DNA from: Clostridia bacterium
GTDB lineage: Bacteria > Bacillota > Clostridia > Oscillospirales > Butyricicoccaceae
Length of the DNA stretch: 64,000 bases
Reading direction: 5' to 3'
NCBI GenBank assembly: GCA_017441945.1
Contig: JAFSBG010000165.1
Span: 1,214-65,213 of the forward strand
Both the position numbers and the translations under genes were made by a program. Shown piece by piece: positions 4,915 to 63,424 of the stretch. Every line of letters starts with the position of its first letter. Position 1 is the stretch's first letter. The notes beneath the pieces were generated by a model. That model searched no databases and had not been told where the DNA came from. It was given only the letters and a program-made list of their open reading frames with translations.

Positions 4915-4991
4915 GTCTCCGTAGCTCAGCTGGATAGAGCGTCAGACTCCGACTCTGAAGGCCGTGCGTTCGAATCGCATCGGGGATGCCA
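4915..4991 (+). tRNA. tRNA-Arg (anticodon CCG)
   Basis: Hand-folded cloverleaf of 77 nt. Acceptor GTCTCCG/CGGGGAT, D arm GCTC-AGCTGGATA-GAGC, anticodon arm TCAGA-CTCCGAC-TCTGA (anticodon CCG), variable loop AGGCC, T arm GTGCG-TTCGAAT-CGCAT, discriminator G, encoded CCA. Confidence 0.9.
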
Positions 4992-5024: not shown

Positions 5025-5242
5025 TAAAACCCACGCTATTTTATTGAGATTCGTAATATATTGTTGAATAGCCCCTTTTTCCATGCTACAATGACCGAAG
5101 AAATGCTGTTTTTCGCCGGCTGCAACCATTGGTTGACATATTTCAAGGTTCAGTTGGTAGCTTTTTTTCTGCATTTTTTATAAAATCAAATAGTAATCGG
5201 ACGGGCAAACATCATCTGTCTTTCCGATGAAAGGTCATTCTT

Positions 5243-6493
5243 ATGAATATACATCTTAAAATACAGGAGCTCCGCAAAAAGGCAGGGCTTTCTCAGGAGG
5301 GTTTTGCCGAGCGGCTTGGCGTTTCCCGTCAGGCTGTTTCCAAGTGGGAATCGGGCGCAAGCACTCCTGACATTGAAAAAATAATCGCCATTTCCAAAAT
5401 CTTTGAAATCTCCCTTTCCGAGCTTCTGACGGGCGAAAAGGATGAGGCACCTCTCTCCGCTGAGGCTCCGGCAGAAATCGCTGTAAACGATGAAAAATAC
5501 GAGGAGCTTTTGCAGGACCATCTCCTGCAGATAGATGAGATGCTCAAAAAGGGAAAGAAAAAGCGTCTTATATGGGGCATCGCCATTATTCTTGTTGCGG
5601 TCATTGTGATTTTCGGATATCTGATCCATCACAACAATGAGCTTCACGCTCTTGAAGCCAACATCAAAACACTGCAAAGCGATATGTCCGGCATTGCCAA
5701 TATACGCACCGACATAAACCACCAGATTTATTCCATCCGTCAGGAAATTTCCGACACTTTGAAGAAGGAATACGGCATGGTAAGCGATTTTGACATCGAA
5801 TACCGCGATATGAGTTTCCCTGACCGCACAGTTGTGCTTGATATTTACGCTTCACCAAGGCTGTGGAATAACGGCGACAGAATAAGCTTTATCATTGAAT
5901 CTGACGGAGAAAGGCTGACTGTCGACGGCATTTATGAAGACGGCACCGCAACGGCAACTGTGACTGTGCCGCTCACCGACAACATTCAGGTTTCCGCCTG
6001 CATTATAAGCGGCGGCACTACCGTGCAGGAAAGGCTTGACGACATTCGCTCGCTTCTCAGCCTTCATCTTTTAGATGTTGACGGACACGGCTCAATAAGC
6101 TCGACTCACACCGAAGGCAGCGACAGTTTTACCCTTGATGGCTCTGTCTCGGTTTTTGTAAGCACCAGGCTTTACGACGAAAACAAGTCGGCAAAATCCC
6201 AGATAAACTCCCTCACTCTTGAGTTTATCGAAAACGGAAAGGCAACTCAGACTGTCGATATGTTTGAGCTCAAGCCCGACTTCAATGCCGCCGAAATGTG
6301 CAATTTCAACTATTCGTTGGACACCATTGAGCGCTCGCTCAATGCGGGGGACACCTATGAATTCGTTGTCACTCTCACCGACCTTAACAATGTGACATAC
6401 CGCGGTGTGTTGGAGCGCATTGAAATAGGCGATAATCTCACCATCGGGCACGATAAGTCATACTACGGCAGTTTTGAGGCAATTCTGCCATAA
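5243..6493 (+). CDS. membrane-anchored XRE-family (HTH_3) transcriptional regulator, paralogue A
   Basis: N-terminal HTH LSQEGFAERLGVSRQAVSKWESG, one TM (LIWGIAIILVAVIVIFGYLI) and a ~270-aa extracytoplasmic C-domain. Colinear paralogue of 9178-10449. Confidence 0.8.
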   Translation: MNIHLKIQELRKKAGLSQEGFAERLGVSRQAVSKWESGASTPDIEKIIAISKIFEISLSELLTGEKDEAPLSAEAPAEIAVNDEKYEELLQDHLLQIDEMLKKGKKKRLIWGIAIILVAVIVIFGYLIHHNNELHALEANIKTLQSDMSGIANIRTDINHQIYSIRQEISDTLKKEYGMVSDFDIEYRDMSFPDRTVVLDIYASPRLWNNGDRISFIIESDGERLTVDGIYEDGTATATVTVPLTDNIQVSACIISGGTTVQERLDDIRSLLSLHLLDVDGHGSISSTHTEGSDSFTLDGSVSVFVSTRLYDENKSAKSQINSLTLEFIENGKATQTVDMFELKPDFNAAEMCNFNYSLDTIERSLNAGDTYEFVVTLTDLNNVTYRGVLERIEIGDNLTIGHDKSYYGSFEAILP

Positions 6494-9006: not shown

Positions 9007-9177
9007 TGCCAGATGGCATAAAATATGCTAAAATTAAGAAAAATACCCCTCCGCAACCTGGGGTTGACAAAAATCGAGCGGAAGTTGGTGGTATTTTCAC
9101 CGGATTTTCACTAAAATCAAACCATAATAAATAAGGTTGTGCACACCTCACCATGTCCCAAGGAGGTAACTTTATCT

Positions 9178-10449
9178 ATGAATATTCATCTTAAAATACA
9201 GGAGCTTCGCAAGAATGCAGGGCTTTCTCAGGAGGCTCTTGCCGAGCAGCTTGGTGTTTCCCGTCAGGCGGTTTCCAAATGGGAGTCGGGCATAAATATT
9301 CCCGACATCGACAAGATCATCGCCATCTCAAAAATCTTCGGAGTTTCCCTTTCTGAGCTTCTCACGGGAGAAAAGGAGGAGACTTCGGCGGCTGAAACTG
9401 CACCTGAATCTGCCCCTGTCCCCGACGAAAAATATGAGGAGCTTTTGCAGCAGCATCTTATGCAGGTCGATGCCATGCTCAAAGAATCGGGCAGAAAAAA
9501 GCGCTCGGGCTGGAGCATTGCTTTCCGAATTATTGCGGCGGTCGTCGCCTGCTATCTGGTGCTTTTCTATGTCGACAAGCTTCAGCGTATGGAAAACAAT
9601 ATAAATAATCTCCAGAGCAATGTGGGCAATATCCGCACCGACATAAATCATCAGATTTATTCTATCCAGAAGGAGATTTCCGAAAGTTTAAAGAAGGAAT
9701 ACGGTCTTATCAGCGACTATACTCTCGACTACCGCGATATGGATTTCCCTCGCCGCACAGTTGTGCTTGATATTTCGGCTTCGCCGAGACTCTGGAATGA
9801 GGGGGACAGCATGGCTTTTATTGTTGAAACCGACGGCGAGCAGATTTCCTGCGAGGGAATTTACAACAACGGCACGGTTTATGCCGAGATTGAGGTGCCT
9901 CTCTCGGACAATATTCAGGTTTCGGCGCTTATCACCAATGGCGGCACTGTAAAGCAGGAGAAGATAGACGAACTTCACGAGCTTCTCAGTATGCATCTGC
10001 TTGAAGTGGACGGTCACGGCTCGATTCGCTCGTCACGCGTACTTGGTGATGACAAGCTGACGATGTCGGGCGATATTTCTGTTTATGTCCACAGCAGGCT
10101 TTATGACGAAAGTCAGCCTGTTTTGTCGCGCATAAAGTCGGCAACTTTTGAGCTTATTGAAAACGGCAAGGCGACACAGACTGTCGACCTGATGAAAGAT
10201 TGTCTAGACAATACTTTCGCCGGCGTTATTGACAATGTCCGCATTGATTTTGATTATACTGTAGGCACGATTGAACGCACCATGAAGGTGGGTGACACTT
10301 ATGAATTTGTGGCTACAATCGTCGACAGCAACGATGTCACTTACAAGGGCATTCTTGAAAGCATTATGGTGACAGATGACCTCTCTGTCGAGCACAACAA
10401 GCGCGACTACGGCGAATTTGAAGTGACTTTGCCGGAGAAAGTTGAGTAA
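9178..10449 (+). CDS. membrane-anchored XRE-family (HTH_3) transcriptional regulator, paralogue B
   Basis: ATG 9178 lies 8 nt after AAGGAGG. MNIHLKIQELRKNAGLSQEALAEQLGVSRQAVSKWESG, one TM and an extracytoplasmic domain colinear with 5243-6493. Confidence 0.8.
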   Translation: MNIHLKIQELRKNAGLSQEALAEQLGVSRQAVSKWESGINIPDIDKIIAISKIFGVSLSELLTGEKEETSAAETAPESAPVPDEKYEELLQQHLMQVDAMLKESGRKKRSGWSIAFRIIAAVVACYLVLFYVDKLQRMENNINNLQSNVGNIRTDINHQIYSIQKEISESLKKEYGLISDYTLDYRDMDFPRRTVVLDISASPRLWNEGDSMAFIVETDGEQISCEGIYNNGTVYAEIEVPLSDNIQVSALITNGGTVKQEKIDELHELLSMHLLEVDGHGSIRSSRVLGDDKLTMSGDISVYVHSRLYDESQPVLSRIKSATFELIENGKATQTVDLMKDCLDNTFAGVIDNVRIDFDYTVGTIERTMKVGDTYEFVATIVDSNDVTYKGILESIMVTDDLSVEHNKRDYGEFEVTLPEKVE

Positions 10450-10450
10450 T

Positions 10451-10945
10451 ATGACATTACCAAACCGAAAAAGCACAAGGCTGCCAGGATTTGATTACAG
10501 CAGCGCTAACACTTATTTCGTCACGCTGTGCACCAGAAACAAAGAAAAGATTTTATCTGAGATAACCGTAGGGAATGGCGTCCTCGACATTCCGCAGATA
10601 AAACTTTCTGCTTTCGGGAAAATTGCCGAAAAGTATATTTTACAGCTGAACGATTTTTATGGTCATATTTCGGTTGAAAATTATATTATAATGCCTAACC
10701 ATATTCATCTTCTTATACGGATAGATAATGCCTGCGGTGCGTCGGGGACGCCGCACCCTACAAATATGGAGCTTCCGAAGTTTATTTCCACATTCAAGCG
10801 TTTCTACAATAAAGAATATGGTTTTAATATCTGGCAGACTTCCTATCATGACCACATCGTCCGAAACGAAGATGATTACAATAAAATATGGCAATATATC
10901 GAAAATAATCATTTAAAATGGACTGACGATATTTATTTTGAATAG
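10451..10945 (+). CDS. REP-associated tyrosine transposase (RAYT; IS200-like Y1/HUH single-domain transposase)
   Basis: 164 aa: LPGFDYSSANTYFVTLCTRNK, HUH motif MPNHIHLLI, catalytic Tyr block WQTSYHDHIVRNEDDY. There is no TnpB or IS end. REP clusters follow immediately downstream. ATG 10451 is preferred over the overlapping TTG at 10442. Confidence 0.85.
   Translation: MTLPNRKSTRLPGFDYSSANTYFVTLCTRNKEKILSEITVGNGVLDIPQIKLSAFGKIAEKYILQLNDFYGHISVENYIIMPNHIHLLIRIDNACGASGTPHPTNMELPKFISTFKRFYNKEYGFNIWQTSYHDHIVRNEDDYNKIWQYIENNHLKWTDDIYFE
10568..10594 (+). repeat. REP hairpin embedded in frame in the RAYT CDS (GTAG head)
   Basis: GTAGGGAATGGCGTCCTCGACATTCCG, translated VGNGVLDIP. It differs at 1 position by eye from the intergenic copy at 44602-44628. 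Stem GGAATG/CATTCC, loop GCGTCCTCGA. Confidence 0.85.
10734..10761 (-). repeat. second, inverted REP hairpin embedded in frame in the RAYT CDS (CCCTAC tail)
   Basis: GCGGTGCGTCGGGGACGCCGCACCCTAC, translated (C)GASGTPHPT. It has the same loop TCGGGGACGC and CCCTAC tail as the copies at 57460 and 58471, but a private compensated stem GGTGCG/CGCACC. Confidence 0.85.
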
Positions 10946-10948
10946 CAA

Positions 10949-10978
10949 AAAGCACCCTGATGGGTGCTTTTTATTTTG
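10949..10978 (+). terminator. rho-independent terminator after RAYT
   Basis: AAGCACCC-TGAT-GGGTGCTT followed by TTTATTTT. Confidence 0.75.
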
Positions 10979-10984: not shown

Positions 10985-11245
10985 ATTTTGTGGGAGGGCA
11001 CAGAGACCCTCCCCTACGGATATTGACCACGAAAGAACAGTTGTAGGGGCGGTTGCTTTCCGCTCCCGTGAAATATCCCCCCTGTCCTGCGGACATCCCC
11101 CCTTTAGGCAAGGGGGGCTATTAAAGAGATGTCTCCGACGGATTAAATAGGAGTCACTCCCTCAGTCAGCCTTACGGCTGCCAGCTCCCTCGTCTGAGGG
11201 AGCCAAGCGTCTTGTACGTAGGGGCGAGCATTGCTCGTCTGCTTT
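10985..11245. repeat. intergenic hairpin mosaic C (REP cluster flanking RAYT)
   Basis: REP 10992-11017 (GGGAGGGCACAGAGACCCTCCCCTAC), linker TTGACCACGAAAGAACAGTT, then REP 11043-11069 (GTAGGGGCGGTTGCTTTCCGCTCCCG). Also the GTCTCCGACGGATTAAATAGG module, the CTCCCTCGTCTGAGGGAG module, and REP 11218-11240 (GTAGGGGCGAGCATTGCTCGTC). Confidence 0.85.
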
Positions 11246-21062: not shown

Positions 21063-22790
21063 ATGACACAAAACAATCAGACAACACCACGCTCCTCTTC
21101 TTCAAGAAAGGGCAAGCGTGTGAAAGCGCGCAGAAGACAGGCTTTGCTTGGCATCTCTGCCCTCGCGCTCATTGCGGTTTTATGTGCCGTTTATGTTTTC
21201 ACCACAGTAATCATGCCTAAGGGCATCTTCAAGGGCGTCACATTTATGGACAAGGACCTTGCTATGATGAGCCAGACTCAGGCCGAAGAAACTATCCGTC
21301 AGGCTGTAAACTCTCTCGGCATTTCGGAAAATATCGAGCTCAACCTCGGCAACGACAAGTTTGATATTTCTACAACTCTCAACGCGGCAAACATCGATGC
21401 AAAGGCTCTTGCTGAAGATGCTTACAACTACGGCAGAGAAGGCTCCTTCTCCGAACGTATGAAGGCTATCAAGGCTGCGAAGAAGGACGGCTACAAGCTT
21501 TCCTGCGATATCGCGCCTGACAGAGAAGCTCTTCTTTCCCAGATTGACGAAGCTATCAAGGCTGCAAGCGCAAACTCGGGCAACGAGCTTTATGAGCTTA
21601 AGGGCGAAGAGATTATTGTAAATCTTGACCACGGCATGAGCTTTGACAGAGAAAAGATTGCTGACCTTCTCGTTGAGAAGATTACAGCTCTCGATTTTGC
21701 TCCGATTTCCTATGAGCCTGACGAAGGCGAAATCAGCGCGGCAACTCTCAAGAGCATGGTAGACGTTGAAATGGCTGAGCCTACTATCGACGTCAATGAC
21801 CCTACATGCCAGACAATCATTCCTGGCGTTGTCGGCTACACACTCGATGCAAAGCAGGCTGAATATCTCATCGAAAATGCAGAAAGCGACACAGTTGCTA
21901 TCCCTGTTACAGTCACAAAGCCTACTTACACAGACGAACAGTACAAGTCGATGATTTTCCGTGATGTGCTTTCCAGCCAGTCCACATCCTTTAACGGCAA
22001 CCAGATCCAGCGTACAGCAAACATCCGCATTGCGGCAAGTGACTGCGAAACTGTCATTATGCCTGGCGAAGAGTTCTCCTACACAGAACAGGTAGGCAGA
22101 ATCACACGTGAAAAGGGCTATCAGGATGCTTTAGTCTTCAGCCAGGGCGAAGTTGTTGACGGTCTCGGCGGCGGCGTTTGCCAGGTTTCTTCCACAATTT
22201 ACATGGCTGCTATGTATGCTGACATGGAAATCACAGTAAGACGTAACCACAGCTTTGTTGTTTCCTACACACCTGTCGGTCAGGACGCTACATTCGTTTA
22301 CGGCGGTCAGGACTTCAAGTTCAGAAACAACACAAACTTCCCAATCAAGATAGACTGCTCTGTTGGCAAGAACTCCATCACAGTAAAAATTATCGGTACT
22401 CAGGAAACACTGGGCAAATCTGTCAAGGTTATTACTGAAATCCTTTCTACAAATCCGTTTGAAGAACAGCACGTTTATGACCCCACACTTGCGCCTGACG
22501 AAGTAAAGGTAAAGAATGTGGGCTACACAGGCTACAAGGCTAACACATACCGTATTATTTACATCGACGGCAAGGAAGTTTCCAGAAACTTTGAAGCTTC
22601 CAGCACATACAAGCGCCTTGACAAGGTGACACTTTACGGCACAGACCCTAATGCTCCTGTAGTCGAGCCTGTAGTGCCGCCAACAGAAGCTCCGACCGAA
22701 GCACCAACAGAGGCACCGACAACTGCACCTACAGAAGCTCCGACTGAAGCTCCTACAGAGGCAACCGAAGGCACAACTGCGGCGGAATAG
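21063..22790 (+). CDS. VanW family protein with N-terminal TM and C-terminal P/T/E/A repeat tail
   Basis: 575 aa with the VanW core GYQDALVFSQGEVVDGLGGGVCQVSSTIYMAA. A signal-anchor lies at residues ~27-50. The tail is PTEAPTEAPTEAPTTAPTEAPTEAPTEA. Confidence 0.85.
   Translation: MTQNNQTTPRSSSSRKGKRVKARRRQALLGISALALIAVLCAVYVFTTVIMPKGIFKGVTFMDKDLAMMSQTQAEETIRQAVNSLGISENIELNLGNDKFDISTTLNAANIDAKALAEDAYNYGREGSFSERMKAIKAAKKDGYKLSCDIAPDREALLSQIDEAIKAASANSGNELYELKGEEIIVNLDHGMSFDREKIADLLVEKITALDFAPISYEPDEGEISAATLKSMVDVEMAEPTIDVNDPTCQTIIPGVVGYTLDAKQAEYLIENAESDTVAIPVTVTKPTYTDEQYKSMIFRDVLSSQSTSFNGNQIQRTANIRIAASDCETVIMPGEEFSYTEQVGRITREKGYQDALVFSQGEVVDGLGGGVCQVSSTIYMAAMYADMEITVRRNHSFVVSYTPVGQDATFVYGGQDFKFRNNTNFPIKIDCSVGKNSITVKIIGTQETLGKSVKVITEILSTNPFEEQHVYDPTLAPDEVKVKNVGYTGYKANTYRIIYIDGKEVSRNFEASSTYKRLDKVTLYGTDPNAPVVEPVVPPTEAPTEAPTEAPTTAPTEAPTEAPTEATEGTTAAE
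22678..22768 (+). repeat. in-frame 12-nt tandem repeat encoding (PTEA)n
   Basis: About 7 imperfect copies of CCNACNGARGCN at the 3' end of the VanW gene. Confidence 0.8.
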
Positions 22791-22795
22791 CAGGT

Positions 22796-23045
22796 ATCAC
22801 CTGCGGTGATGCGATATGCACTTCGTGCGCGATATAATGCTTCGCATTGCGATATTCGCTTTTTACCCCACAATTGCGAGCGATATGTTTGCTTTGCAAA
22901 CGTTGTGGTGTGACAAGTCACATTGGATAAGTTCACTCCCTCCGTCACACTTCGTGTGCCACCTCCCTCGTCTGAGGGAGGCAAGAAAGCTTCGATTTAA
23001 TCAAAGCTTTTCATTACGGAACGTCGAGAACGCCGTTCCCTGCAT
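22796..23045. repeat. intergenic hairpin mosaic F (GCGATAT array copy 1)
   Basis: ATCACCTGCGGTGAT starts 6 nt after the stop, followed by GCGATAT + mini-hairpin units to 22910. Then GTGTGACAAGTCACATTGGATAAG, CTCCCTCCGTCACACTTCGTGTGCCACCTCCCTCGTCTGAGGGAGGCAAGA, and a degenerate REP at 23017-23043. Confidence 0.9.
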
Positions 23046-24010: not shown

Positions 24011-24015
24011 CACAT

Positions 24016-24335
24016 ATCACCTGCGGTGATGCGATATACACTTCGTTCGCGATATAATGCTTCGCATTGCGATATTCGCTTTTTACCCCAGGCGGCAGGC
24101 CACCCGGGGACCCCACAATTGCGAGCGATATGTTTGCTTTGCAAACGTTGTGGTGCCTGCGGCGCGTTTGATAAAACGAGCTACGCTCTGTGGGAGGGCA
24201 CAGAGACCCTCCCCTACATCTTCCTTGTTAAGAACAAGTTTGTAGGGGCGGCGGTTCCATCCCCGCCCGCTTATCAAATCCGTGCGAAGCACACCGCAGT
24301 TCTTCACTTTTAACTATTACTTATAACTTTGCAAT
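24016..24335. repeat. intergenic hairpin mosaic G (GCGATAT array copy 2)
   Basis: The array at 24016-24155 is near-identical to 22796-22910 apart from a 25-nt indel (24091-24115) and 2 substitutions. Also REP 24192-24217, hairpin CTTGTTAAGAACAAG, REP 24242-24270, and TTCACTTTTAACTATTACTTATAACTTT words. Confidence 0.9.
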
Positions 24336-26184: not shown

Positions 26185-26560
26185 TATCACCTATGGTGAT
26201 GCGATATGCACTTTGTGCGCGATATGCACTTTGTGCGCGATATGCACTTTGTGCGCGATATGCGCTTCGCGCGCGATATTTTTGCTATGCAAAAGCGATA
26301 TGTTCCTTTGGAACGTAAAGGTGCCTGCGGCGCATCCGATAATTTTCTCTCCCTCCGTCACTTCGTGACACCTCCCTCGTCAGAGGGAGGCAAGAAAATT
26401 TGTCATTCTGAGGGTTAACCCCGAAGAATCTCCTTCGATTTGCACAATCACGGGATGCCTGGGCGTCATCCCTTACAATTAAATAGACGGGCTACGCCCT
26501 ACACCCCTCCGACGGCTTACTCCGCCACCTCCCCTTAACAATGGGAGGCAATAATCAGTC
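26185..26560. repeat. intergenic hairpin mosaic H (GCGATAT array copy 3)
   Basis: TATCACCTATGGTGAT, then six GCGATAT units to ~26314, then GTGCCTGCGGCGC. Next come CTCCCTCCGTCACTTCGTGACACCTCCCTCGTCAGAGGGAGGCAAGA (26347-26397), reversed GTCATTCTGAGGG..GAAGAATC, REP-like 26448-26476, ATTAAATAGACGGGCTACGCCCTAC, and CCTCCCCTTAACAATGGGAGG. Confidence 0.9.
26201..26272 (+). repeat. 18-nt perfect tandem repeat x3 plus one variant
   Basis: GCGATATGCACTTTGTGC occurs at 26201, 26219 and 26237, then GCGATATGCGCTTCGCGC at 26255. Each unit is the word GCGATAT plus an 11-nt hairpin. Confidence 0.9.
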
Positions 26561-31206: not shown

Positions 31207-31440
31207 AAATGAATTGCACAAAATGTGCGTGAATTGATGCAAGCATCATGAATTGCGCTACGCGCATGAATTGAATTGCTTTGCAATTCATTGCGGTGCC
31301 TGCGGCGCTATCAGATAAAACGCCCTTTGGGCTACACCTCATCCACCGCAAGCGGTCCCCCTTCCCCTCAAGGGGAAGGCATTGAGATTGTTCGTAGGGA
31401 CCGGCGTCCCCGACGGTCCGCTTATTCAATCGTGCACAGC
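31207..31440. repeat. intergenic hairpin mosaic J
   Basis: ATGAATT-word array (31207-~31290) ending in GGTGCCTGCGGCGC. Then CACCTCATCCACCGCAAGCGGTCCCCCTTCCCCTCAAGGGGAAGG and REP 31394-31421 (GTAGGGACCGGCGTCCCCGACGGTCCGC). Confidence 0.85.
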
Positions 31441-37954: not shown

Positions 37955-38232
37955 AGACTATTTAATCCGTCGGAGACACCTCGATTGCTTTAAAGCAATC
38001 ACCCGCTCACAGAGCGAATATTGAATGTGACTTGTCACACACAAGGGGTCCAGGGGGCTCCGCCCCTTGGTCATCGTGATCAAACTGCGTGACCAGTTTG
38101 CAGTTTTTGCAACTTTTGGGCGGCCAAAAGTTGACGTCGTAGACGTACCGAGCTTTGCGCTCGGCGTGGGAGCTGTTGTTTTAACCAAAGCCTTGATTTA
38201 TGCGGACTGTCGAGGACGCCAGTCCCTACCTG
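37955..38232. repeat. intergenic hairpin mosaic M
   Basis: TATTTAATCCGTCGGAGAC, GATTGCTTTAAAGCAATC, GTGACTTGTCACAC, a ~100-nt element at 38075-38172 (a relative of 20264-20361), and REP 38202-38229. Confidence 0.85.
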
Positions 38233-44439: not shown

Positions 44440-44895
44440 TTTGATGTGTTGGGTGAAGGTGTGGTGAGTGCGCATCAGATGAGTAACGCCTACGGCTACA
44501 CCTCATCCACCGCAAGCGGTCCCCCTTCCCCTCAAGGGGAAGGCTTATGGCTTTGCAAAATCCATAGGCTCCCTTAACAAGGGGAGGCAAGAGACTTTCT
44601 TGTAGGGAATGGCGCCCTCGACATTCCGTTTATTAAATATGATGAAGTCACACCACACCTTTTCACTATTCACTTTTATCTATTACTTTGTCTGCGGGAC
44701 GCCGAGGGCGTCGTCCCCTACAATTGAATAGACGGGCTACGCAATCCACCCTCTCCGTCACATTACACCCCAAGCAGCAAGCTGCTCGGGGACCCCACAA
44801 AATTAAATAGGTGCGGTGGCACTCGCCACCGGTCGCGCACTTGCGCTCCTCTGACACCTCCCCTTAACAAGGGGAGGCAAGAATATGATTTTGCC
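44440..44895. repeat. intergenic hairpin mosaic P
   Basis: CACCTCATCCACCGCAAGCGGTCCCCCTTCCCCTCAAGGGGAAGG, CTCCCTTAACAAGGGGAGGCAAGAG, REP 44602-44628 (GTAGGGAATGGCGCCCTCGACATTCCG), TTTTCACTATTCACTTTTATCTATTAC words, REP 44694-44721, AATTGAATAGACGGGCTACGC.., GGGGACCCCACAAAATTAAATAGG.., and CCTCCCCTTAACAAGGGGAGGCAAGA. Confidence 0.85.
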
Positions 44896-49426: not shown

Positions 49427-50110
49427 GCGGGGGATGTGGAGGACGATTAAATAGACGGGCCGCGCCCTACACCTCTCCGTCACACTATCGTGTGCCACCT
49501 CCCCTTAACAAGGGGAGGCTTTTTTGTTGTGTCTCCGACGGATTAAATAAGGCAGGCGGGGATGGAACCACCGCCCCTACAGAAAATCTCTCGCCTCCCT
49601 CTGACGAGGGGGGTGTCACGAAGTGACGGGGGGAGAGACCTCCATTTAATCCGCCCATGACGCCGATTACATACATTTTCAATGATGCCATACGCTATGC
49701 GATTACATACACCTGCGGTGACTACATACCGCTGCGCGGATATAAGGTATGACTTCGTCACGATTGAATAACTTCTCTCCCTCAGTCTCGCATATGCTCG
49801 ACAGCTCCGCCGGGGTCCCCGCAAAGCCTGCTTTGTGGGGTGGCTCTAAGAGGGAGCCATGGGATTGTGCTATCATTAGCCTCCCCTGTACAAGGGGAGG
49901 CTTTTTTGTTGTGTCTCCGACGGATTAAATAAGGCGGTACGTCGTTGAATCCCTCCACCATCGTTCCGATGGTCCCCCTCCCGATAAACGGGGTCCCCGC
50001 AAAGCCTGCTTTGTGGGGTAAATTCACAAGGGAGGCAGCCGTACCCTACATTGATTGTGCTATTGGGTTGGAAAGATTCTTCATATTCGTTCAGAATGAC
50101 AGGGTTGGGG
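49427..50110. repeat. intergenic hairpin mosaic S (largest, ~0.7 kb)
   Basis: ATTAAATAGACGGGCCGCGCCCTAC, CTCTCCGTCACACTATCGTGTGCCACCTCCCC, CCTCCCCTTAACAAGGGGAGG + T-run (49498-49526), GTCTCCGACGGATTAAATAAGG x2 (49530, 49911), and REP 49555-49580. Also reversed CCTCCCTCTGACGAGGGGGG/GTCACGAAGTGAC, a reversed GTATGTAATC array at ~49655-49760, GGGGTCCCCGCAAAGCCTGCTTTGTGGGG x2, and GAAAGATTCTTC..CAGAATGACAG. Confidence 0.85.
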
Positions 50111-52980: not shown

Positions 52981-53400
52981 AAAGCCTTCCCTGCATAAGG
53001 GGAGGCTTTTTTGTTGTGCGGGGTGTGGAGGACGATTACATACATTTTCAATGATGCCATACGCTTCACAATTACATACACCTGCGGTGATTACATACCG
53101 CTGTGCGGATATAAGGTGTTGCTATGCAACTGATTTATTAAGCGGGCGGGCATGGAAACCCGCCCCTACGGATTGACTACGAAAGAACGGTTGTAGGGGC
53201 GGTGGTTCCATCCCCGTCCGCAGGAGATGTAATAAGTAAAAGTGAATAGTGAAGAAGTGCGGTGTGATACCCCAAGGGCACTTACGCAAGTCACATTTGG
53301 TAGGTTTCTCTCCCTCCGTCACTTCGTGACACCTCCCCGATAATGGGGTCCCCGCAAAGCCTGCTTTGTGGGGTGAATTCACAGGGGAGGCAAGAGTATG
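52981..53400. repeat. intergenic hairpin mosaic T
   Basis: AGCCTTCCCTGCATAAGGGGAGGCT + T-run, a reversed GTATGTAATC array at ~53033-53135, and REP 53142-53169, linker, REP 53193-53221. Also reversed TTCACT words, GTGTGATA..GTCACATTTGGTAGG, CTCCCTCCGTCACTTCGTGACACCTCCCC, and GGGGTCCCCGCAAAGCCTGCTTTGTGGGGTGAATTCACAGGGGAGGCAAGAG. Confidence 0.85.
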
Positions 53401-56400: not shown

Positions 56401-57002
56401 ATAGCGTCAAAGTCTACCATTTCCTTAAGATCTTCGTAATCCCAAACAGCGATCTTCTGGATTTCGTGGGATGTACGGAAACCATCGAAGAAGTGAAGGA
56501 ATGGAACACGACCCTTGATAGCTGCGAGATGAGCTACAGCACCGAGGTCCATAACTTCCTGCTGGTTGGAAGAAGCGAGCATTGCGAAACCTGTCTGACG
56601 GCAAGCCATAACGTCGGAATGATCGCCGAAGATGGAGAGAGCATGAGAAGCAAGAGCACGAGCGGAACAGTGGATAACACCTGGGAGAAGTTCGCCTGCG
56701 ATCTTGTACATGTTAGGGATCATGAGGAGAAGGCCCTGAGATGCAGTGTAAGTTGTTGTCAAAGCACCAGCTGTGAGGGAGCCGTGAACAGCACCAGCAG
56801 CACCAGCTTCGGACTGCATTTCGATAACCTTAACTTCCTGACCAAAAATGTTCTTCTGGCCTACAGCACTCCAGGAGTCTGTAAGTTCTGCCATAACGGA
56901 AGATGGAGTAATAGGGAAGATACCCGCAACTTCTGTGAAAGCATAGGACACATGAGCGGCAGCGTTGTTACCGTCCATGGTCTTCATTTTTCTTGTTACC
57001 AT
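53463..57002 (-). CDS. nifJ: pyruvate:ferredoxin (flavodoxin) oxidoreductase
   Basis: 1179 aa, single-chain PFOR. Two 4Fe-4S ferredoxin motifs (CIQCNQCAMVCSHAA; CMGCGLCEKICP), a TPP-binding block (GGDGWAYDIGYGGLDH) and a strong RBS. Confidence 0.97.
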   Translation of the reverse strand: MVTRKMKTMDGNNAAAHVSYAFTEVAGIFPITPSSVMAELTDSWSAVGQKNIFGQEVKVIEMQSEAGAAGAVHGSLTAGALTTTYTASQGLLLMIPNMYKIAGELLPGVIHCSARALASHALSIFGDHSDVMACRQTGFAMLASSNQQEVMDLGAVAHLAAIKGRVPFLHFFDGFRTSHEIQKIAVWDYEDLKEMVDFDAIKEFRARALNPEHPVLRGTAQNPDIFFQAREASNPFYNALPAVVEEYMGKVNEKIGTNYGLFNYYGAEDATDVIVAMGSVCDTIEEVIDYKLAQGEKVGLVKVRLYRPFVTEKFAAVLPKTVKNIAVLDRTKEPGAIGEPLYLDVVTALAHEGIQANVTGGRYGLGSKDVPPAVIFATYENMKAAEPKRQFTLGITDDVTNLSLDLDPNCPDTTAAGTVSCKFWGLGGDGTVGANKNSIKIIGDHTDKYAQAYFAYDSKKTGGITVSHLRFGDSPIRSTYFVTKADFVACHNPSYITKYDMVQDVKPGGTFLLNCQWKPEEIAEYLPNKVKAFIAKNNINFYTVNAIDLAREIGMGKRTNTILQSAFFALSGILPIEEAVEYMKAAALKSYGKKGEDIVNMNYAAIDAGYKALNKIEVPADWANLVDDSVEAEVKGNRPELVKFVKEILNPVSAQQGDKLPVSTFTSMPDGTFPVGAAAYEKRGVAVDVPAWDAQKCIQCNQCAMVCSHAAIRPFALNKDEMAAAPASIKSKAMIGKDLGEYQFTMAVSVLDCMGCGLCEKICPVKAIEMKPQASQHDQQAVFDYAVENVEYKEFPAFPASTVKGSQFRQPMLEFSGACAGCVETAYARLVTQLFGDRMYIANATGCSSIWGGSAPTTPYTVNKLGKGPAWANSLFEDNAEFGLGMATGVRQIRERMAAKIADLKDTLECDECKAICQNWLDTMTDGQKNGKATEALVALLEKLDTQAAKDILEYKDFLSKKSIWIFGGDGWAYDIGYGGLDHVIASGEDINIFVFDTEVYSNTGGQASKSTQIGQTAQFAAAGKAIAKKDLTGIAMAYHYVYVAQVGMGANMPQTVKALVEAESYNGPSLIVGYAPCEMHGLKGGMTNSQSEIKFAVESGYWHLFRYDPRLVAEGKNGFQLDSKEPTLENYRKFLMNEVRYTGLVRQFPERAEVLFAKAEKAAKEKYELMKRRAEHGV

Positions 57003-57167
57003 TTGAGTTTTCCTCCATAATTTATTTTATAGGGTTTTTCTTATTATCTCACCTTATATGATAACAAATAAACTGAAAATAATCAAGCCCTTTTTCATTG
57101 AAAATATTAAATTTACTTTTATAACAGGGATAAATAATTGGATATTTTGGATGAGAATGGTGGAGGA

Positions 57168-57718
57168 TATGTCACCATAGGTGACGCGATATGTGTGTTG
57201 CACACGATATGTTCCTGCGGAACGCGATATTCGGCTTCGCCGAGCGATATGTTTTCCTGCGGAAAACATTAAGATATCTGCGGCGCGATTTAATAAGCGG
57301 GAGGGCGCACAGAGACCCTCCCCTACGCACAATCCCCTTGCCTCTCCTGTTTCAGGAGAGGTGGCACACGAAGTGTGACGGAGAGGTAAATCTTATTCAA
57401 TCCGTGACGGAGTCACACCGTACTTTTTCACTTTTCACTTTTACTTATTACTTTCTATTGCGGACCGTCGGGGACGCCGGTCCCTACAATATCTCTTGCC
57501 TCCCCTGCATACACTCCCCTTGCCTCCCTCAGACGAGGGAGGTGGCTGAGCATAGCGAAGTCGGAGGGAGTGAATCTTATTGAATGTGATTTATCACACC
57601 GTACTTCTTCAATATTGAACGGCGAGAGCAAGCCCCCGCCCTACGTTCTCTGCGGGACGCCCTCAGCACCGTCCCTTGCATAATTTAAATGGGCGGGTTT
57701 CCATGCCCGCCCGCAATT
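57168..57718. repeat. intergenic hairpin mosaic U (GCGATAT array copy 5)
   Basis: The array GTCACCATAGGTGAC + GCGATAT units spans 57171-57287. REPs lie at 57297-57326, 57460-57487 and 57652-57679, with a headless REP at 57691-57714. Also reversed CTCCGTCAC../CCTCTCCTGTTTCAGGAGAGG, TTTTCACTTTTCACTTTTACTTATTAC words, CCTCCCTCAGACGAGGGAGG, GTGATTTATCACAC, and a 47-nt unit at 57604-57650. Confidence 0.9.
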
Positions 57719-58213
57719 TTACATCTTTCTCATTTTCGCCAGCTCTCTGGCTTCCTTGCCGGAGATATGCTCAGGTGTGATTTCCACGATACAGAGGGCA
57801 GGCATTTCCTTATTCACCTCGGCGTTATGACTTTCAATGCTCATATCAGGGCAGTATTTCCGGGAAATGGCATATATTGCTCTGAGCATAAGCTCCTTGT
57901 CTGTGACTATTTTCGCCCTGCCGAAAACAACGGCGCTGCGGAAATATGTTGTAAACTCATCCTGCACGATTTCGTCCTTATCGACCACTGTGAAACAGGC
58001 CTTGTCGCAGTTTGTAATGGCGTCGATTTTATGTCCCATTTTGGCGCAATGGAAATAGATTTTGCCATCAAGCATTGCATAGCTGACAGGCACGCTGTAA
58101 GGGTAGCCGTCGTCGCCGATGACCGAAAGAATGCCGTTTGAGCCTCTTTCAAGCACTTCATTTGTGATATTTTCAGGCAAAACCTGATTTTTTCTTCTCA
58201 TTTCTCTGAACAT
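57719..58213 (-). CDS. pyridoxamine 5'-phosphate oxidase-family (flavin-binding split-barrel, NimA-like) protein
   Basis: 164 aa from ATG 58213. MRRKNQVLPENITNEVLERGSNGILSVIGDDGYPYSVPVSYAMLDGKIYFHCAKMGHK is typical of this family. Confidence 0.8.
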   Translation of the reverse strand: MFREMRRKNQVLPENITNEVLERGSNGILSVIGDDGYPYSVPVSYAMLDGKIYFHCAKMGHKIDAITNCDKACFTVVDKDEIVQDEFTTYFRSAVVFGRAKIVTDKELMLRAIYAISRKYCPDMSIESHNAEVNKEMPALCIVEITPEHISGKEARELAKMRKM

Positions 58214-58273
58214 TGTTGTACTCTTTTTTTGAATGAATTGTCCCGATGGGACATTGTGGTATCTGCGATGCAT

Positions 58274-58545
58274 TTAATAAATGGGAGGGCGCAGAGACCC
58301 TCCCCTACGGAATTTTTTTGCAGACTATTTTGTAGGGGCGGGTTTCCATGCCCGCCCGCCTTATTCAATCCGTGACGAAGTCACACCGCACTTCTTCAAT
58401 ATTGAACGGCGAGAGCAAGCCCCCGCCCTACGTTCTCCACGGGAGCAGCAAGCGGCTCCCCTACAATTTTCGGACCGTCGGGGACGCCGGTCCCTACATT
58501 TTTCGGGAGGGCACAGAGACCCTCCCCTACGGCTGTTTGTGAGTG
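58274..58545. repeat. intergenic hairpin mosaic V
   Basis: CTGCGATGCATTTAATAA, REPs 58283-58308 and 58332-58359, GTGACGAAGTCACAC, a 47-nt unit at 58391-58437, and REPs 58441-58464, 58471-58497 and 58505-58530. Confidence 0.9.
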
Positions 58546-58554
58546 TTGATTACC

Positions 58555-59106
58555 CTATCTATAAACCTTTTTCACCCATTCTTTCCTGATTTCCCATATA
58601 TTGCCGTAGTAATTTTTATTTCCTGTGATGGTGATATCATCATCGAAAAGCCGCTGCCAGCTTTGCTCGATTTCCCGCTTTATCTGGGGGTAAAAGGCTG
58701 TCGAAAAGGCTTTTATATCGTTTGTGCCGTATTCACTGAGCATTTCGCCATGGCGTTTTTTGTCCTTTTCGTCAAGGGGGATATAGCTGTAATTTGTGAT
58801 GGAGGTCCACTTTTCGATATTGATTTTCGTGATGATTTCCTGGTCGATTTCAAGCTCAAGCATTACAAAGCCGGGCTGAAGCATCATCGTGGCTTCCTTC
58901 TCCATCGAAACCCAGACAGGATAGTCGGCATCCCGAGGCTTATCGGGAAGATATTTTACCAGCCAGTCGTAGCATTTCAGTACAAGACCTTCGTGGTCGT
59001 CGGCAGTTTTTGCAATAATGTGCCGTTTTGCCGTGTATCTGCCCTCTTTTTCAATTATTTCAGCCACATTTTCGTTCTGTTTTGTCCAGACTGTGATTTT
59101 TGACAT
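58555..59106 (-). CDS. DUF3841-like hypothetical protein
   Basis: 183 aa from ATG 59106 (RBS AAGAGG), beginning MSKITVWTKQNENVAEIIEKEGRYTAKRHII. The family name is tentative. The ORF-track extension translates the repeat array. Confidence 0.5.
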   Translation of the reverse strand: MSKITVWTKQNENVAEIIEKEGRYTAKRHIIAKTADDHEGLVLKCYDWLVKYLPDKPRDADYPVWVSMEKEATMMLQPGFVMLELEIDQEIITKINIEKWTSITNYSYIPLDEKDKKRHGEMLSEYGTNDIKAFSTAFYPQIKREIEQSWQRLFDDDITITGNKNYYGNIWEIRKEWVKKVYR

Positions 59107-59120
59107 GATTGTTGTACCTC

Positions 59121-59445
59121 TTTTATCACCTGCGGTGATGCGATATGCGCATAGCGCGCGATATATAAATGCGATATATCCTGCAGATGCGATATGTTTT
59201 CCGTGAAAACACAAATGTATCTGCGATGCGATTTAATAAGCGGGACGTCGGGGGCGCCGTCCCCTACAAGAAAGTTCTATAGCCTCCCCTGTGCAAGGGG
59301 AGGGGGACCGTTGGAACAACGGTGGAGGGGTTGTTACCTATAAAAATGTGATTTATCACACATTGCTTTTTCAATATTGAGCGGCGAGAGCAAGCCCCCG
59401 CCCTACGTTCTCCACGGGAGGGCGCAGAGACCCTCCCCTACGATG
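59121..59445. repeat. intergenic hairpin mosaic W (GCGATAT array copy 6)
   Basis: Array at 59124-59230, REP 59240-59267, CCTCCCCTGTGCAAGGGGAGG + reversed CCACCGTTGTTCCAACGGTCCCCC, GTGATTTATCACAC, a 47-nt unit at 59365-59411, and REP 59416-59441 ending 6 nt before the pnuC stop. Confidence 0.9.
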
Positions 59446-59447
59446 GA

Positions 59448-60143
59448 TTATTCTCCGATTATTTCTCTTACGCGTTTTTTCTGCATTTTCATCATGCGTT
59501 TCCAGCTTACGAAGCCATAGATATCGTTGGCGAGAAAGACCATAAAGCAGACCGCCATCGGGATATATCCCGGATTTGTTACGCTTGCCATAAGCCACAT
59601 TATTATAAGCACCACATCATTCGATGCGTAGGCAAGGGCATAGTAGGGCGAGCGGAGGACAGACAAGCCTGCGGCGAAAAAGCTTGTTGTGACCGAAATC
59701 GTGCTTATGATGAGATTTGCTGTGTTGAAATATTTCAGTATGAAATAAAATACCGCTGTGACGATGGCTGTCAGTATGCCGAGACCGATGATTTTCACAG
59801 GTGTCAGCTTTGCGACGGCGACCTGTGATTTGCCCTGCTCAAAGGGGTGACGAATCCATTCGATGGCGGCTATGGCGGCTGTCGGCGCTGTCATGCCGAC
59901 ATAGGTCAGCATTTCGCCGTAATAGGCAAAGCCGAAGGAGATATAGCCGTAAACAAGGCTGAAAATTATCATTAAAACCTGGCCGATTACTTCCCCTCTT
60001 GCAATGAAAATCAGCGATGTGACGCCGATTAGGGAGGCTATCAGGGTCAGAGGATTTTTGTCTGTGCCGAAGAAAAAGCTGACGGTTATCAGCAGTGACG
60101 AGGTCAGCCAGAGTGCTTTTTCGAATTTTGTGAGATTTTTCAT
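59448..60143 (-). CDS. pnuC: nicotinamide riboside transporter PnuC
   Basis: 231 aa from ATG 60143 with 7-8 TM. WLTSSLLITVSFFFG...LIASLIGVTSLIFIARGEVIGQVLMIIFSLVYGYISF and a C-terminal SWKRM block are typical of PnuC. Confidence 0.75.
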   Translation of the reverse strand: MKNLTKFEKALWLTSSLLITVSFFFGTDKNPLTLIASLIGVTSLIFIARGEVIGQVLMIIFSLVYGYISFGFAYYGEMLTYVGMTAPTAAIAAIEWIRHPFEQGKSQVAVAKLTPVKIIGLGILTAIVTAVFYFILKYFNTANLIISTISVTTSFFAAGLSVLRSPYYALAYASNDVVLIIMWLMASVTNPGYIPMAVCFMVFLANDIYGFVSWKRMMKMQKKRVREIIGE

Positions 60144-60429
60144 TGTGCGCGTCCTTATTTTTATTTGCGCAGGCGGCAAAACGGTGATCACGCTCCGCAT
60201 CACAGCCTGCGCATCAAGAAAGAATAGGCGTATGAATAAAAAAAGGCATCCACACGCTCATCTTCAAAGACCTAACGATGAACACATGAATGCTTCCATT
60301 CGTTGCCCGGTGGCAACACTTTATTATGCTTTGCTATGATATTATAGCATATTTTTTGGCGAAAATCAAGAGCTTTCATGGCAAAAGAACAGTCTATAAC
60401 CAATATTTCATTCTGAACGAAGTGGTGTC

Positions 60430-61010
60430 TGCGATGCATTGGATAGGGCGGGAGCGGCAAGCGGCTCCCCCACGCACACATCCTTTGCCTCTCCTGTGAA
60501 TTCACCCCACAAAGCAGGCTTTGCGGGGACCCCATTATCGGGGAGGTGCCCCAACGGGGCGGAGGGGTTGTTCCCTATTTAATTGCCTAATATGCCGTAG
60601 GCACACCTTGTAAAATGGGGTTTCCAAAGGGGCGTAATTTACCCCAAACGACAGGTCGTTCGGGGACCCCGCAAAATTAAATAAATGCGGCGACACTCGT
60701 CGCCGGTCGCACCCCGGTGCTCCTGTGGTCAGGTGGTCAAACTGCCTGACTTTCACCCCAGACAGCAGGCTGTCTGGGGTGTGAATCAAGGGGATGCTTT
60801 ATTCGGGAGGGCGCGGAGACCCTCCCCTACGATTTGACCACGAAAGAATAGTTGTAGGGGCGGGTTTCCATGCCCGCCCGCGGGACGTCGGGGGCGCCGT
60901 CTCCTACAATGGGATTGTGCCATTGGGGTGGAAAGATTCTTCGCGAGCAACGGGGTCCCCGGGCGACCTGTCGTCTGGGGTGAATATCAGAATGACATTG
61001 CATTGCGCGG
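60430..61010. repeat. intergenic hairpin mosaic X
   Basis: CTGCGATGCATTGGATAGG, REP 60450-60473, reversed GGGGTCCCC..TGAATTCACAGGAGAGG, GGGGACCCCGCAAAATTAAATAAATGCGGCGACACTCGTCGCC.., GGTCAAACTGCCTGAC, and CACCCCAGACAGCAGGCTGTCTGGGGTG. Then REP 60805-60830, linker, REP 60854-60881, REP 60882-60907, and GAAAGATTCTTCGCG. Confidence 0.85.
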
Positions 61011-61139
61011 CAATTCATTATATAACATTATACACCATATTTCTTTCTCTGTGAATAGCATTTTGCTTATTTCCCTCTTGTAATTGCATTCGTTTCGCGG
61101 TATAATTTAAACATAACAAATACATAAAGGAGAAACACT

Positions 61140-62147
61140 ATGGAAAAAGTACGTCTCGGCCGCACAGAGATTATCGTCGGCAAAAACTCTTTCGGCGCTC
61201 TCCCTATCCAGCGAATTTCCAAGGAAGATGCTGCTAAATTACTCCGCAAGGCTTATGAAAGCGGTTTCAACTATTTTGATACAGCAAGAATGTACACAGA
61301 CTCGGAAGAAAAAATCGGCTATGCCCTTTCCGATGTCCGTGACAACATCATTATTTCCACAAAGACAGGCGCAAAGACTGTTGAAGGCTTCTGGGCTGAC
61401 CTTAACAAGAGCTTAGAGCTTCTCAAGACAGATCACATCGACATTTATCAGTTCCACAACCCTGATTTCTGCCCAAAGCCAGGTGACGGCTCCGGTCTTT
61501 ACGAAGCTATGGTAGAAGCTAAGGAAAAAGGTCTTATCAAGCACATCGGTATCACAAACCACCGTCTTGCTATCGCTGAAGAAGCTGTCAAGAGCGGTCT
61601 TTACGAAACACTTCAGTTCCCATTCTCCTATCTTGCAAGTGAGAAGGACGTTGCTCTCGTAAAGCTCTGCGAAGAACACGATGTTGGCTTCATCTGCATG
61701 AAGGCGCTTTCCGGCGGTCTTATCACACATTCCGACGTTGCTTACGCATATCTTGCACAGTTCCCTGTTGCTCCTATCTGGGGTATTCAGCGTGAAAGCG
61801 AGCTTGATGAGTTTATCTCCTACATCGACAACCCACCTGCAATGACTCCTGAACGCGAAGAGTTCATCAAGAAGGAAAAGGTTGAGCTTGCAGGCGAATT
61901 CTGCCGTGGCTGCGGATACTGTATGCCTTGCCCAATGGGTATCCAGATCAACACCTGCGCAAGAATGTCTCTCCTTCTCCGCCGTTCTCCAACAGCAGGT
62001 CATCTCTCTGAAAAGGGTCAGGCTATGATGAAGAAGATCGACGACTGCATTAACTGCGGCAAGTGTAAGGCTGCTTGTCCATACGGTCTCGACACACCAA
62101 ACCTCCTCAAGAGAAACTACGAGGACTATAAGACATTTTTAAAGTAA
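61140..62147 (+). CDS. aldo/keto reductase with C-terminal 4Fe-4S ferredoxin-type domain
   Basis: 335 aa with the AKR N-terminus (LGRTEIIVGKNSFGALPIQR..AYESGFNYFDTARMY) and C-terminal Cys clusters CRGCGYCMPCP and CINCGKCKAACP. Confidence 0.85.
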   Translation: MEKVRLGRTEIIVGKNSFGALPIQRISKEDAAKLLRKAYESGFNYFDTARMYTDSEEKIGYALSDVRDNIIISTKTGAKTVEGFWADLNKSLELLKTDHIDIYQFHNPDFCPKPGDGSGLYEAMVEAKEKGLIKHIGITNHRLAIAEEAVKSGLYETLQFPFSYLASEKDVALVKLCEEHDVGFICMKALSGGLITHSDVAYAYLAQFPVAPIWGIQRESELDEFISYIDNPPAMTPEREEFIKKEKVELAGEFCRGCGYCMPCPMGIQINTCARMSLLLRRSPTAGHLSEKGQAMMKKIDDCINCGKCKAACPYGLDTPNLLKRNYEDYKTFLK

Positions 62148-62157
62148 GATAATATGA

Positions 62158-62190
62158 GAAAGACCGTCCCTCCGTGGGCGGTCTTTTTTG
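62158..62190 (+). terminator. rho-independent terminator
   Basis: AGACCGTCCC-TCCGT-GGGCGGTCT followed by TTTTTTG. Confidence 0.7.
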
Positions 62191-62194
62191 TTTG

Positions 62195-62470: not shown

Positions 62471-62574
62471 ATCTGAAGAAAAAATTATGTTATGAAAGGA
62501 GTTACCTTTGGAAACGTAATTTTCAGTTTATATTTTTAGAGGTCAATGAAAAGATTTATCTTATTTACAATAAT

Positions 62575-63321: not shown

Positions 63322-63424
63322 AATTTTTCCTCCTGTATAACTTTAATTTTATCTTGGCTAAAGTATACCATAATAGTGTACTATTGTCAATAGGCAAATT
63401 ACACTTTTTTAGTAAAAATTAAAA

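Follow-up and report, generated by a model that had tools for sequence, protein, structure and literature searches.

Why would a gene for an enzyme of repetitive extragenic palindromes (REPs) hold two such palindromes inside its own reading frame? The question is raised by an open reading frame (ORF) of 164 amino acids (aa) in a 64,000-nt stretch of a Clostridia bacterium (assembly GCA_017441945.1, contig JAFSBG010000165.1, positions 1,214 to 65,213; hereafter the window), whose product appears to be a REP-associated tyrosine transposase (RAYT). We confirm the feature and find it to be conserved, and a RAYT gene with internalized cognate REPs explains it well; the encoded peptides drift, whereas both hairpins persist at the nucleotide level. 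The case bears on how REPs spread and on how each RAYT keeps its match to a REP family of its own, a field in which RAYT-driven REP movement is not known to have been shown in vivo. The parts of the gene, with REPs named by their position in the coding sequence (CDS), are as follows.

10451-10945, + strand: RAYT / TnpA_REP-like Y1 HUH endonuclease gene, 164 aa (from the ORF list, Pfam, NCBIfam and PDB)
10568-10595, + strand: in-CDS REP site 1, with GTAG head at 10568-10571 and hairpin GGAATG.CG....CG.CATTCC, encoding V40-G-N-G-V-L-D-I-P48
10596-10733, + strand: segment between both REPs, with helix 54-69, strands 73-80 and 84-91, and the HUH motif inside
10734-10761, − strand: in-CDS REP site 2, with CTAC at 10758-10761 on the + strand and stem GGTGCG/CGCACC, encoding approximately C95-G-A-S-G-T-P-H-P-T104
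10895-10897, + strand: codon of the catalytic tyrosine Y149 in the Y---N motif YIENN (QYIENN), aligned with Y115 of PDB entry 4ER8

Each site folds as an unpaired GTAG followed by a hairpin of 6+2 bp, with a DNA folding energy of −7.9 kcal/mol (z −2.83) for site 1 (10568-10594, GTAGGGAATGGCGTCCTCGACATTCCG) and of −10.2 kcal/mol (z −2.5) for the minus strand of site 2 (10734-10761, GCGGTGCGTCGGGGACGCCGCACCCTAC). Both segments read exactly as they had been quoted in a first-pass annotation, made by a model from the letters alone, and they do form an inverted pair with GTAG heads pointing outward on either side of the HUH codons. The two arms differ at 7/26 positions, each site being compensated internally (AAT/ATT vs TGC/GCA), and the bottom of the stem has two consecutive G-C pairs in the window's own sites vs three in most REP families. 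In the AlphaFold model, aa 40-48 (site 1) form the tip between strands 36-39 and 49-52, with a block mean predicted local distance difference test score (pLDDT) of 63, while residues 95-103 (site 2), situated between the HUH strand 84-91 and helix 107-123, stay below a pLDDT of 50; the site 2 stretch is also a gap in the alignment with E. coli TnpA_REP. Given their low model confidence and position, and the site 2 gap, both REP-encoded segments are predicted to be permissive loops. Of the three meanings suggested earlier, surface loops that tolerate REPs have direct support from the low pLDDT of the model and from tandem in-frame expansions among homologues, while a master copy and autoregulation are candidate roles.

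The pair had also been called a REPIN-like doublet. A REPIN, as Bertels and Rainey are said to have described it in 2011, is reportedly made of two inverted REPs that are separated by a short spacer, fold into one long hairpin and constitute a repeated mobile unit. What stands of the comparison is the inverted pair and a predicted long-range pairing: in the RNA fold of 10551-10780, site 1 pairs with site 2 around the HUH segment (−72.3 kcal/mol, z −4.85). Identity with a REPIN does not stand, as the spacer is 139 nt of unique coding sequence, far longer than is typical of REPINs, and the 194-nt unit has no second copy in the window.

The enzyme itself is recognizable by profile and by fold. 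Pfam Y1_Tnp matches the 164-aa protein narrowly (E 3.7e-5, 24.3 bits vs a cut-off of 23) and the HUH motif is H84-I85-H86 (nt 10700-10708), in agreement with the Y1/HUH signature assigned earlier to this ORF. NCBIfam REP_Tyr_transpos matches residues 72-156 only (E 1.5e-13), at 50.8 bits and thus under its curated equivalog cut-off of 80, so that the protein is, judged by its sequence, a divergent relative of the proteobacterial RAYTs modelled there. The best PDB match by sequence profile is 4ER8, E. coli TnpA_REP bound to a REP hairpin (E 1.5e-8), which is also the best fold match of the AlphaFold model (E 3.7e-7, TM-score 0.62; model mean pLDDT 79). No TnpB-type Pfam domain is on record among the neighbouring genes. 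Because 4ER8 is the top match by both sequence and fold and no neighbour is of TnpB type, we take the gene product to be a RAYT-type (TnpA_REP) Y1 HUH enzyme, as the first-pass annotation had done. That annotation had misplaced the catalytic tyrosine, however, in WQTSYHDH: this residue, Y132, corresponds to a Phe of the E. coli protein and varies among homologues, whereas Y149 aligns with Y115, the catalytic residue of E. coli TnpA_REP (PMC3479197). In the homologue alignment Y149, I150 and N153 are invariant. The protein carries the class-2 signature Y---NP as YIENNH, with P replaced by H, where orthologues read YIENNP or YIDTNV, and its WQ..[FY].[DE]H.IRN block (IWQTSYHDHIVRN) aligns with IWQPRFWEHAIRN of 4ER8; signature and block together distinguish RAYTs from IS200 TnpA.

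How widely is this layout shared? Public databases hold more than 1300 relatives of the protein, most of which come from metagenome-assembled genomes (MAGs) of Oscillospiraceae, Acutalibacteraceae and other Clostridia, and more than 472 species-representative genomes encode one. We extracted 85 homologous genes from 80 loci (labelled L001 and onward), which gives 86 with the window's gene. GTAGGG is found at the site-1 position in 77/86 genes and CCCTAC at the site-2 position in 71/86. By a hairpin-based detector, HUH is preceded by a plus-head REP and followed by a minus-head REP in 70/84 genes, with the upstream REP only in 4, the downstream REP only in 7 and neither in 3; other orientations are almost absent, and the same two loop positions are kept. 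Peptides of the VG.G...P and G.S.TP.PT types, which the first-pass annotation had ascribed to related Firmicute proteins, are present among them, and the encoded peptides are fully different between subfamilies (VGNGVLDIP, VGEGLCALP, VGDDAHIVP, VGATFGRP, VGAHIVRP and others). No inverted copy of the HUH segment, of the kind expected for a phase switch, appeared among the tblastn hits in the 80 loci, where no search was aimed at inversion.

What is conserved at these positions is the pairing and not the peptide. Along the aligned genes, 30-nt segments have a mean folding energy close to −1 kcal/mol, interrupted by two sharp peaks, one at aa 45 (−8.8) and one at aa 100 (−7.5). All 77 site-1 segments and all 71 site-2 segments (77/77 and 71/71) are more stable than their own synonymous recodings, the means being −9.4 kcal/mol at site 1 and −7.7 at site 2 vs −2.9 kcal/mol after recoding. 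Site 1 occurs as 54 distinct sequences, nearly all of which fold as GTAG plus a hairpin. Among 60 distinct 26-mers that share a common geometry, 99.2% of pair cells are standard pairs; these were chosen beforehand from 84 for this geometry, so that the paired percentage is inflated while the compensatory changes are unaffected. Three variable stem positions account for 78 double-sided changes with 0 broken pairs (89 double-sided changes over all pairs), a degree of covariation reached by 0/500 shuffles. Since site 1 is read in frame with its stem triplets as whole codons, the covariation is visible in the protein: the residue pairs N/I, D/V, T/C, T/G, A/R, G/A and L/E covary, and the x/y residues can be encoded by reverse-complement codons in 117/117 motif proteins vs 42 in shuffles. 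In a 97%-identical orthologue with about 33 substitutions, none falls within the 55 REP nucleotides. Conservation of the peptides can therefore be rejected as the cause of the repeats, and the comparison of orthologues proposed in the first-pass annotation comes out in favour of the hairpins, with peptides that are not conserved and pairing kept through compensatory changes.

Co-evolution also ties the two sites to each other, to the protein and to extragenic REPs nearby. Within a gene, a median of 2/26 mismatches separates site 1 from the reverse complement of site 2, compared with 8 between genes (0/10000 permutations), and REP distance grows with protein distance when both sites are excluded from the protein comparison (rho 0.35, 0/999 permutations). 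Extragenic GTAG hairpins lie within 3/24 mismatches of the resident gene's sites in 28/190 cases, compared with 9.5 in permutations (maximum 22); without the window the figure is 26/155, compared with 6.3 by permutation. The intragenic hairpins thus do relate to the REPs of their host, a second check that had been proposed. In L076, both of the distinct internal sites have identical extragenic copies, while L060 and L025 have REP families found nowhere else in the locus set. The remaining REP families of a locus can usually be matched to internal sites in RAYT paralogues of other genomes, as is the case for the window's families B, C and E. This fits a genome with several RAYT paralogues, each paired with a REP family; an example is the MAG of loci L050 and L076, where three RAYT paralogues occur with three REP types.

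RAYT paralogues within one genome are divergent, with the exception of one tandem duplicate in a Bacillota MAG (L065:10001-11268). Its two copies, 789 nt apart from start to start, have the same REP sites and tblastn statistics, and they are the sole near-identical RAYT duplication among the 80 loci.

Within the window, the count of GTAGG-headed hairpins over all families is 37, compared with 1-6 in shuffles; at least six families can be told apart, and nearly all of the hairpins lie outside long ORFs. The pattern GTAGGG-NNN-GGCGYCCYCGA alone has 17 matches vs 0.22 expected. Shuffles rule out chance or low-complexity matches, and the REPs are not fragments of the RAYT gene: similarity ends at the unit of about 28 nt, and tblastn finds no other RAYT-like CDS in the window, where the gene is single-copy. 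The relatives of site 1 are found at 44602-44628 (one mismatch, as had been noticed earlier) and at 2653-2679 and 38203-38229 (both on the minus strand, two mismatches each), where none is expected by chance. Site 2 has no other copy within three mismatches in the window, in keeping with the unique stem ascribed to it; its loop and CCCTAC tail recur, as had also been seen, at 57468-57487 and 58478-58497, and again at 31394-31413. The main extragenic copies are these.

44602-44629, + strand: extragenic REP, one mismatch from site 1, with the same AAT/ATT stem
2653-2679, − strand: extragenic REP with the site-1 stem and loop and a degenerate head, TGAG
57460-57487, − strand: extragenic REP with the site-2 loop GGCGTCCCCGAC and an ACC/GGT stem
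4627, 20632, 23017, 31394, 38202, 44694, 46520, 58470, 59240, 60881, 62323: further copies of the 57460 loop family, about 12 in all
63565-63591, both strands: "double-foot" REP, one hairpin with GTAG at its 5' end and CTAC at its 3' end

These REPs also occur in combinations. At 58439-58530, three REPs of families F, A and B lie head-to-tail in one orientation, at a spacing of 31-33 nt and with AAAAT/AAATT linkers; this array, which resembles a bacterial interspersed mosaic element, suggests that new REPs land beside existing REPs regardless of family. Dimers with heads inward occur in four copies (10990-11070, 53142-53202, 58281-58359 and 60803-60881), each composed of a family-B or family-C REP, a 22-25-nt spacer and a family-C REP; the spacer is conserved in 3/4 copies (GGATTGACCACGAAAGAACAGTT-like), and the dimer at 10990-11070 immediately follows the RAYT gene. 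In other genomes, the VGEGLCALP-type RAYT paralogues (e.g., L078) have families B and C as their site-1 and site-2 sequences. The intergenic DNA of the window is unusually repeat-dense at 57000-63800 and in scattered places (19415, 22929, 26338, 49470-50040 and 53300-53400). Several further short families are unrelated to GTAG REPs, for example CCTCCCTCGTCTGAGGGAGGCAAGAA hairpins, GGGGTCCCCGCAAAGCCTGCTTTGTGGGG hairpins and "TTATTAAATCGCATCGCAGATA"-type modules that adjoin REPs. A repeat family starting TATCACCTGCGGTGATGCGATATGCAC is found at 22795-22870, 24015-24090, 26185-26280, 34851, 57170 and 59124, and includes an 18-nt tandem array, GATATGCACTTTGTGCGC, at 26203-26280. A 12-nt tandem repeat at 22668-22775 is itself within a CDS, where it encodes a Pro/Thr/Glu/Ala-rich linker (PTEAPTEA...).

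Where does the fixed orientation come from, and what becomes of the sites over time? The outgroup genes L073 (Coriobacteriia) and L080 (Leptolinea) have no internal REPs, but a plus-head REP upstream and a minus-head REP downstream of the gene. This is the canonical REPtron layout, and the internal pair, with its heads outward, has the polarity of the flanking REPs in canonical REPtrons; L053 has both an internal pair and flanking REPs, all in the same head polarity. The in-CDS REPs are also shown to be sites of amplification and deletion. In-frame tandem REP copies are present at site 2 in L011, L016, L044, L046, L047 and L054, and some genes have extra hairpins at site 1. At L050:8640-8790, a RAYT pseudogene begins exactly at the site-1 REP, behind about three tandem units (REP + CAACCCTAAAATCAGTTCTGATTGTATATAAAGCC), and its start at a REP marks the in-CDS REP as a rearrangement breakpoint. 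A paralogue in L008 (8051-8368) lacks aa 42-107. Used as a query, it retrieved ten further short proteins, 103-121 aa long (P0122, P0134, P0136, P0138, P0142, P0148, P0164, P0169, P0178 and P0211), in which the HUH module is absent while the frame and the Tyr half are kept. Genes of this form, which belong mostly to the VGALHEAP-type subfamily, include the following.

L008:8051-8368: short HUH-less gene, the query of this search
L081:2448-2807: short HUH-less gene whose junction is a single double-foot REP, GTAGGGGCGCTTCACGAAGCGCCCCTAC, with the site-1 loop
L082:1555-1914: short HUH-less gene whose junction is a single double-foot REP, GTAGGGGCGCTTCGTGAAGCGCCCCTAC, with the site-2 loop

The site-1 loop at one junction and the site-2 loop at the other point to independent arm-to-arm deletions. 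In the window's own gene, simple arithmetic on the sequence rejects such an event as a source of short proteins, because the loss of 164 nt would put the sequence out of frame; with the geometry of the window's REPs, in-frame short forms are not expected.

Known TnpA_REP enzymes recognize a GTAG-headed hairpin on single-stranded DNA (ssDNA) and cleave at CT or CA on either side of it (PMC8266576). We consider it probable that the window's gene is a RAYT whose cognate REPs have been internalized in frame, in two surface loops that flank the HUH module, and are kept there through the putative action of the enzyme. If the encoded enzyme acts on GTAG-headed ssDNA hairpins, it would treat the in-CDS sites as ordinary members of the REP family, the coding strand would offer site 1 as substrate and the template strand site 2, and the sites would then be copied, replaced or homogenized with the genomic population. 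Internalization would keep the enzyme physically tied to its recognition sites for good, in a protein that presumably tolerates whichever 9-10 residues the REP encodes. The tandem in-frame REP amplification at site 2 and the arm-to-arm deletion of the HUH module, which leaves one double-foot REP, are probably by-products of having recombinogenic palindromes within the gene.

Several points weigh against this account. That the window's enzyme binds and cleaves these particular hairpins is something that we infer, and processes other than its own activity could drive the concerted evolution. In 14/84 genes, one or both sites have been lost although the ORF is not obviously damaged. Extragenic copies with the site-1 stem number only 2-3 in the window and none has the site-2 stem, while the abundant variants (ACC/GGT and GAC/GTC) are unlike both sites. 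Across the locus set, the extragenic copies that match are in many cases no more than 500 nt away from the gene, so that a genome-wide link is less well shown than a local one, and 29/81 loci have no extragenic GTAG hairpin within their 2-64 kb.

The same losses, together with the outgroups that have no internal REPs, fit an account in which the hairpins are passive passengers: a single ancestral insertion into two permissive loops of a RAYT, tolerated and with no role in the biology of the enzyme. Quentin et al. (2018; PMC6006769) give such a passive reading for subclass 2.4 of TnpA_REP. It agrees with the position of both peptides in low-confidence surface loops, with site 2 being an insertion relative to E. 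coli TnpA_REP, with the variation in length and the tandem copies, and with the modelling described in the same text, which puts the variable region away from the DNA-binding and catalytic sites. A neutral insert would be expected to decay, and yet hairpin stability and compensation persist across proteins that are 40-60% identical, the identity of the sites to each other and to host REPs is maintained as well, and position and orientation are essentially invariant. Passive carriage would need a continuing nucleotide-level process to account for this, and with that process added it comes close to the best explanation; as it stands we hold it possible but unlikely. We are more doubtful still of a stronger form of the favoured account, in which the in-CDS pair is a working cis-element, the RAYT gene a master copy of the REP family and the HUH module an excisable cassette, all three jointly. 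Were it true, enzyme and target would be inseparable and would diversify together, removal of the HUH module would be enzyme-driven or regulated and a natural origin of double-foot REPs, and the HUH-less short proteins left behind could modulate the remaining RAYTs.

Two further explanations look to the transcript and to the protein. Hairpins or long-range pairing in the mRNA might throttle translation, stabilize or truncate the transcript or bind the protein, and would thereby keep a potentially harmful nuclease low. The predicted pairing of site 1 with site 2 around the HUH segment would suit such control, and REPs are reported to affect mRNA turnover (PMC3479197) and, in a bioRxiv abstract, to act as 3' untranslated region regulators in E. 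coli. Control of this kind has no need, however, of invariant GTAG/CTAC heads, of shared loops or of identity with extragenic REPs; known TnpA_REP enzymes act on ssDNA (PMC8266576, PMC3479197), and no Rfam family matches the region, which speaks against a known structured RNA at the gene (the only Rfam match of the window is a tRNA at 4915-4988). We regard it as improbable. More improbable again is a self-referential recognition in which the REP-encoded x/y loop residues read the very hairpin that encodes them, so that target and reader change together. The genetic code does couple the stem triplet and the loop residues in all 117 motif proteins, and RAYT and REP do co-diverge, but base pairing fully explains the coupling, both loops are predicted to be disordered or peripheral, the models described in the text of PMC6006769 place the β3-αC insertion off the DNA-binding and catalytic sites, and tandem copies and losses are tolerated.

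The RAYT gene follows a gene for an HTH_3 membrane protein (9139-10449), whose stop codon is separated from the RAYT ATG by 1 nt; this synteny is also present in L083 and L084. The HTH_3 gene has a paralogue about 3.9 kb further upstream (5242-5946 vs 9177-9875, 76-85% nucleotide identity) that has no adjoining RAYT. On its other side the RAYT gene is bounded by the following element.

10947-10972, + strand: intrinsic-terminator-like hairpin with a T-run, directly 3' of the RAYT gene

In a large clade of Clostridia the recognition hairpins are part of the enzyme's own reading frame, and this amounts to a natural experiment: the hairpins can be destroyed synonymously with the protein unchanged, and the loops can be altered with the pairing unchanged. 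The natural deletion and amplification products indicate that the sites are recombinationally active, and they offer a concrete origin for double-foot REPs. The layout also accounts for recurrent hypervariable peptides (VGxGVLDxP, GxSxTPxPT, VGAHIVRP, etc.) and for short HUH-less ORFs in annotations of gut Clostridia.

The closest known system is subclass 2.4 of TnpA_REP, which corresponds to RAYT group 4 of Bertels et al. (2017) and for which in-frame REP insertions were described by Quentin et al. (2018; BMC Genomics 19:475, PMC6006769). The novelty implied by the first-pass annotation was therefore overestimated, since in-frame REPs in tnpAREP genes were published in 2018; the window's gene is an instance of a published kind with new details, and its value lies in extension and testability rather than in a new category. 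By the feature description in that text, rather than by the authors' hidden Markov model, the gene resembles subclass 2.4. Shared features are the GTAG head, a stem starting with G-C pairs, double-foot REPs, in-gene REPs that leave the frame intact, a variable loop after the HUH strand (β3-αC), length variation from short repeats and the lack of a C-terminal extension. Site 2 of the window (aa 95-104) sits in the β3-αC region between HuH and Y, as the text describes for subclass 2.4; the hairpins are GTAGGG...CC(C) throughout, as in the REPs described for it, with double-foot REPs at 63565-63591 and in L081 and L082; and some REPs listed for subclass 2.4, such as GTAGGGGCAATTCATGAATTGCCCCTAC, nearly match REPs of the window at 39471 and site 1 of L001_8903. 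Subclass 2.4 is described in the same text as abundant in Cyanobacteria and Bacteroidetes, with insertions "generally between HuH and Y" plus flanking REPs. The Clostridia clade differs from this description in its fixed inverted pair with heads outward, in a second REP upstream of HUH, and in having a cognate REP within 500 nt outside the CDS in only 14/86 genes. The part of the Quentin et al. table that was covered lists no Clostridia member of subclass 2.4, and in their text, figures aside, we found nothing on a constant second REP ahead of HUH, on covariation at the codon level, on concerted evolution between the two sites or on deletion genes that lack HUH.

Other papers on RAYTs describe REPs only as flanking or overlapping the ends of the gene, as in the E. 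coli REPtron (yafM/rayT, 4ER8). The window's gene shares with it HUH, Y---N and WQ..[FY].[DE]H.IRN, a small protein and GTAG-headed hairpins, and the nearest REPs of the E. coli gene are inverted around it, as in L073 and L080. In E. coli, however, the REPs have a bulged stem and lie outside the CDS, whereas in the window they lie in the reading frame and bracket the HUH module only, and the identity between the window protein and 4ER8 is only 18%. TnpA of IS200/IS605 is likewise a Y1 HUH enzyme encoded between hairpins recognized as ssDNA, with a tetranucleotide guide 5' of the hairpin, but those elements are mobile and multi-copy as a whole and have both ends on one strand, unlike the single-copy gene of the window with its hairpins on opposite strands inside the gene, its conserved synteny and no TnpB. 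Finally, REPs inserted in unrelated genes (Di Nocera et al., 2013; PMC3733652) are similarly translated in frame as short peptide inserts in presumed loops; those cases are sporadic and mostly at different sites in related genes, whereas here the REPs occupy two fixed, family-wide sites in the gene of their cognate enzyme.

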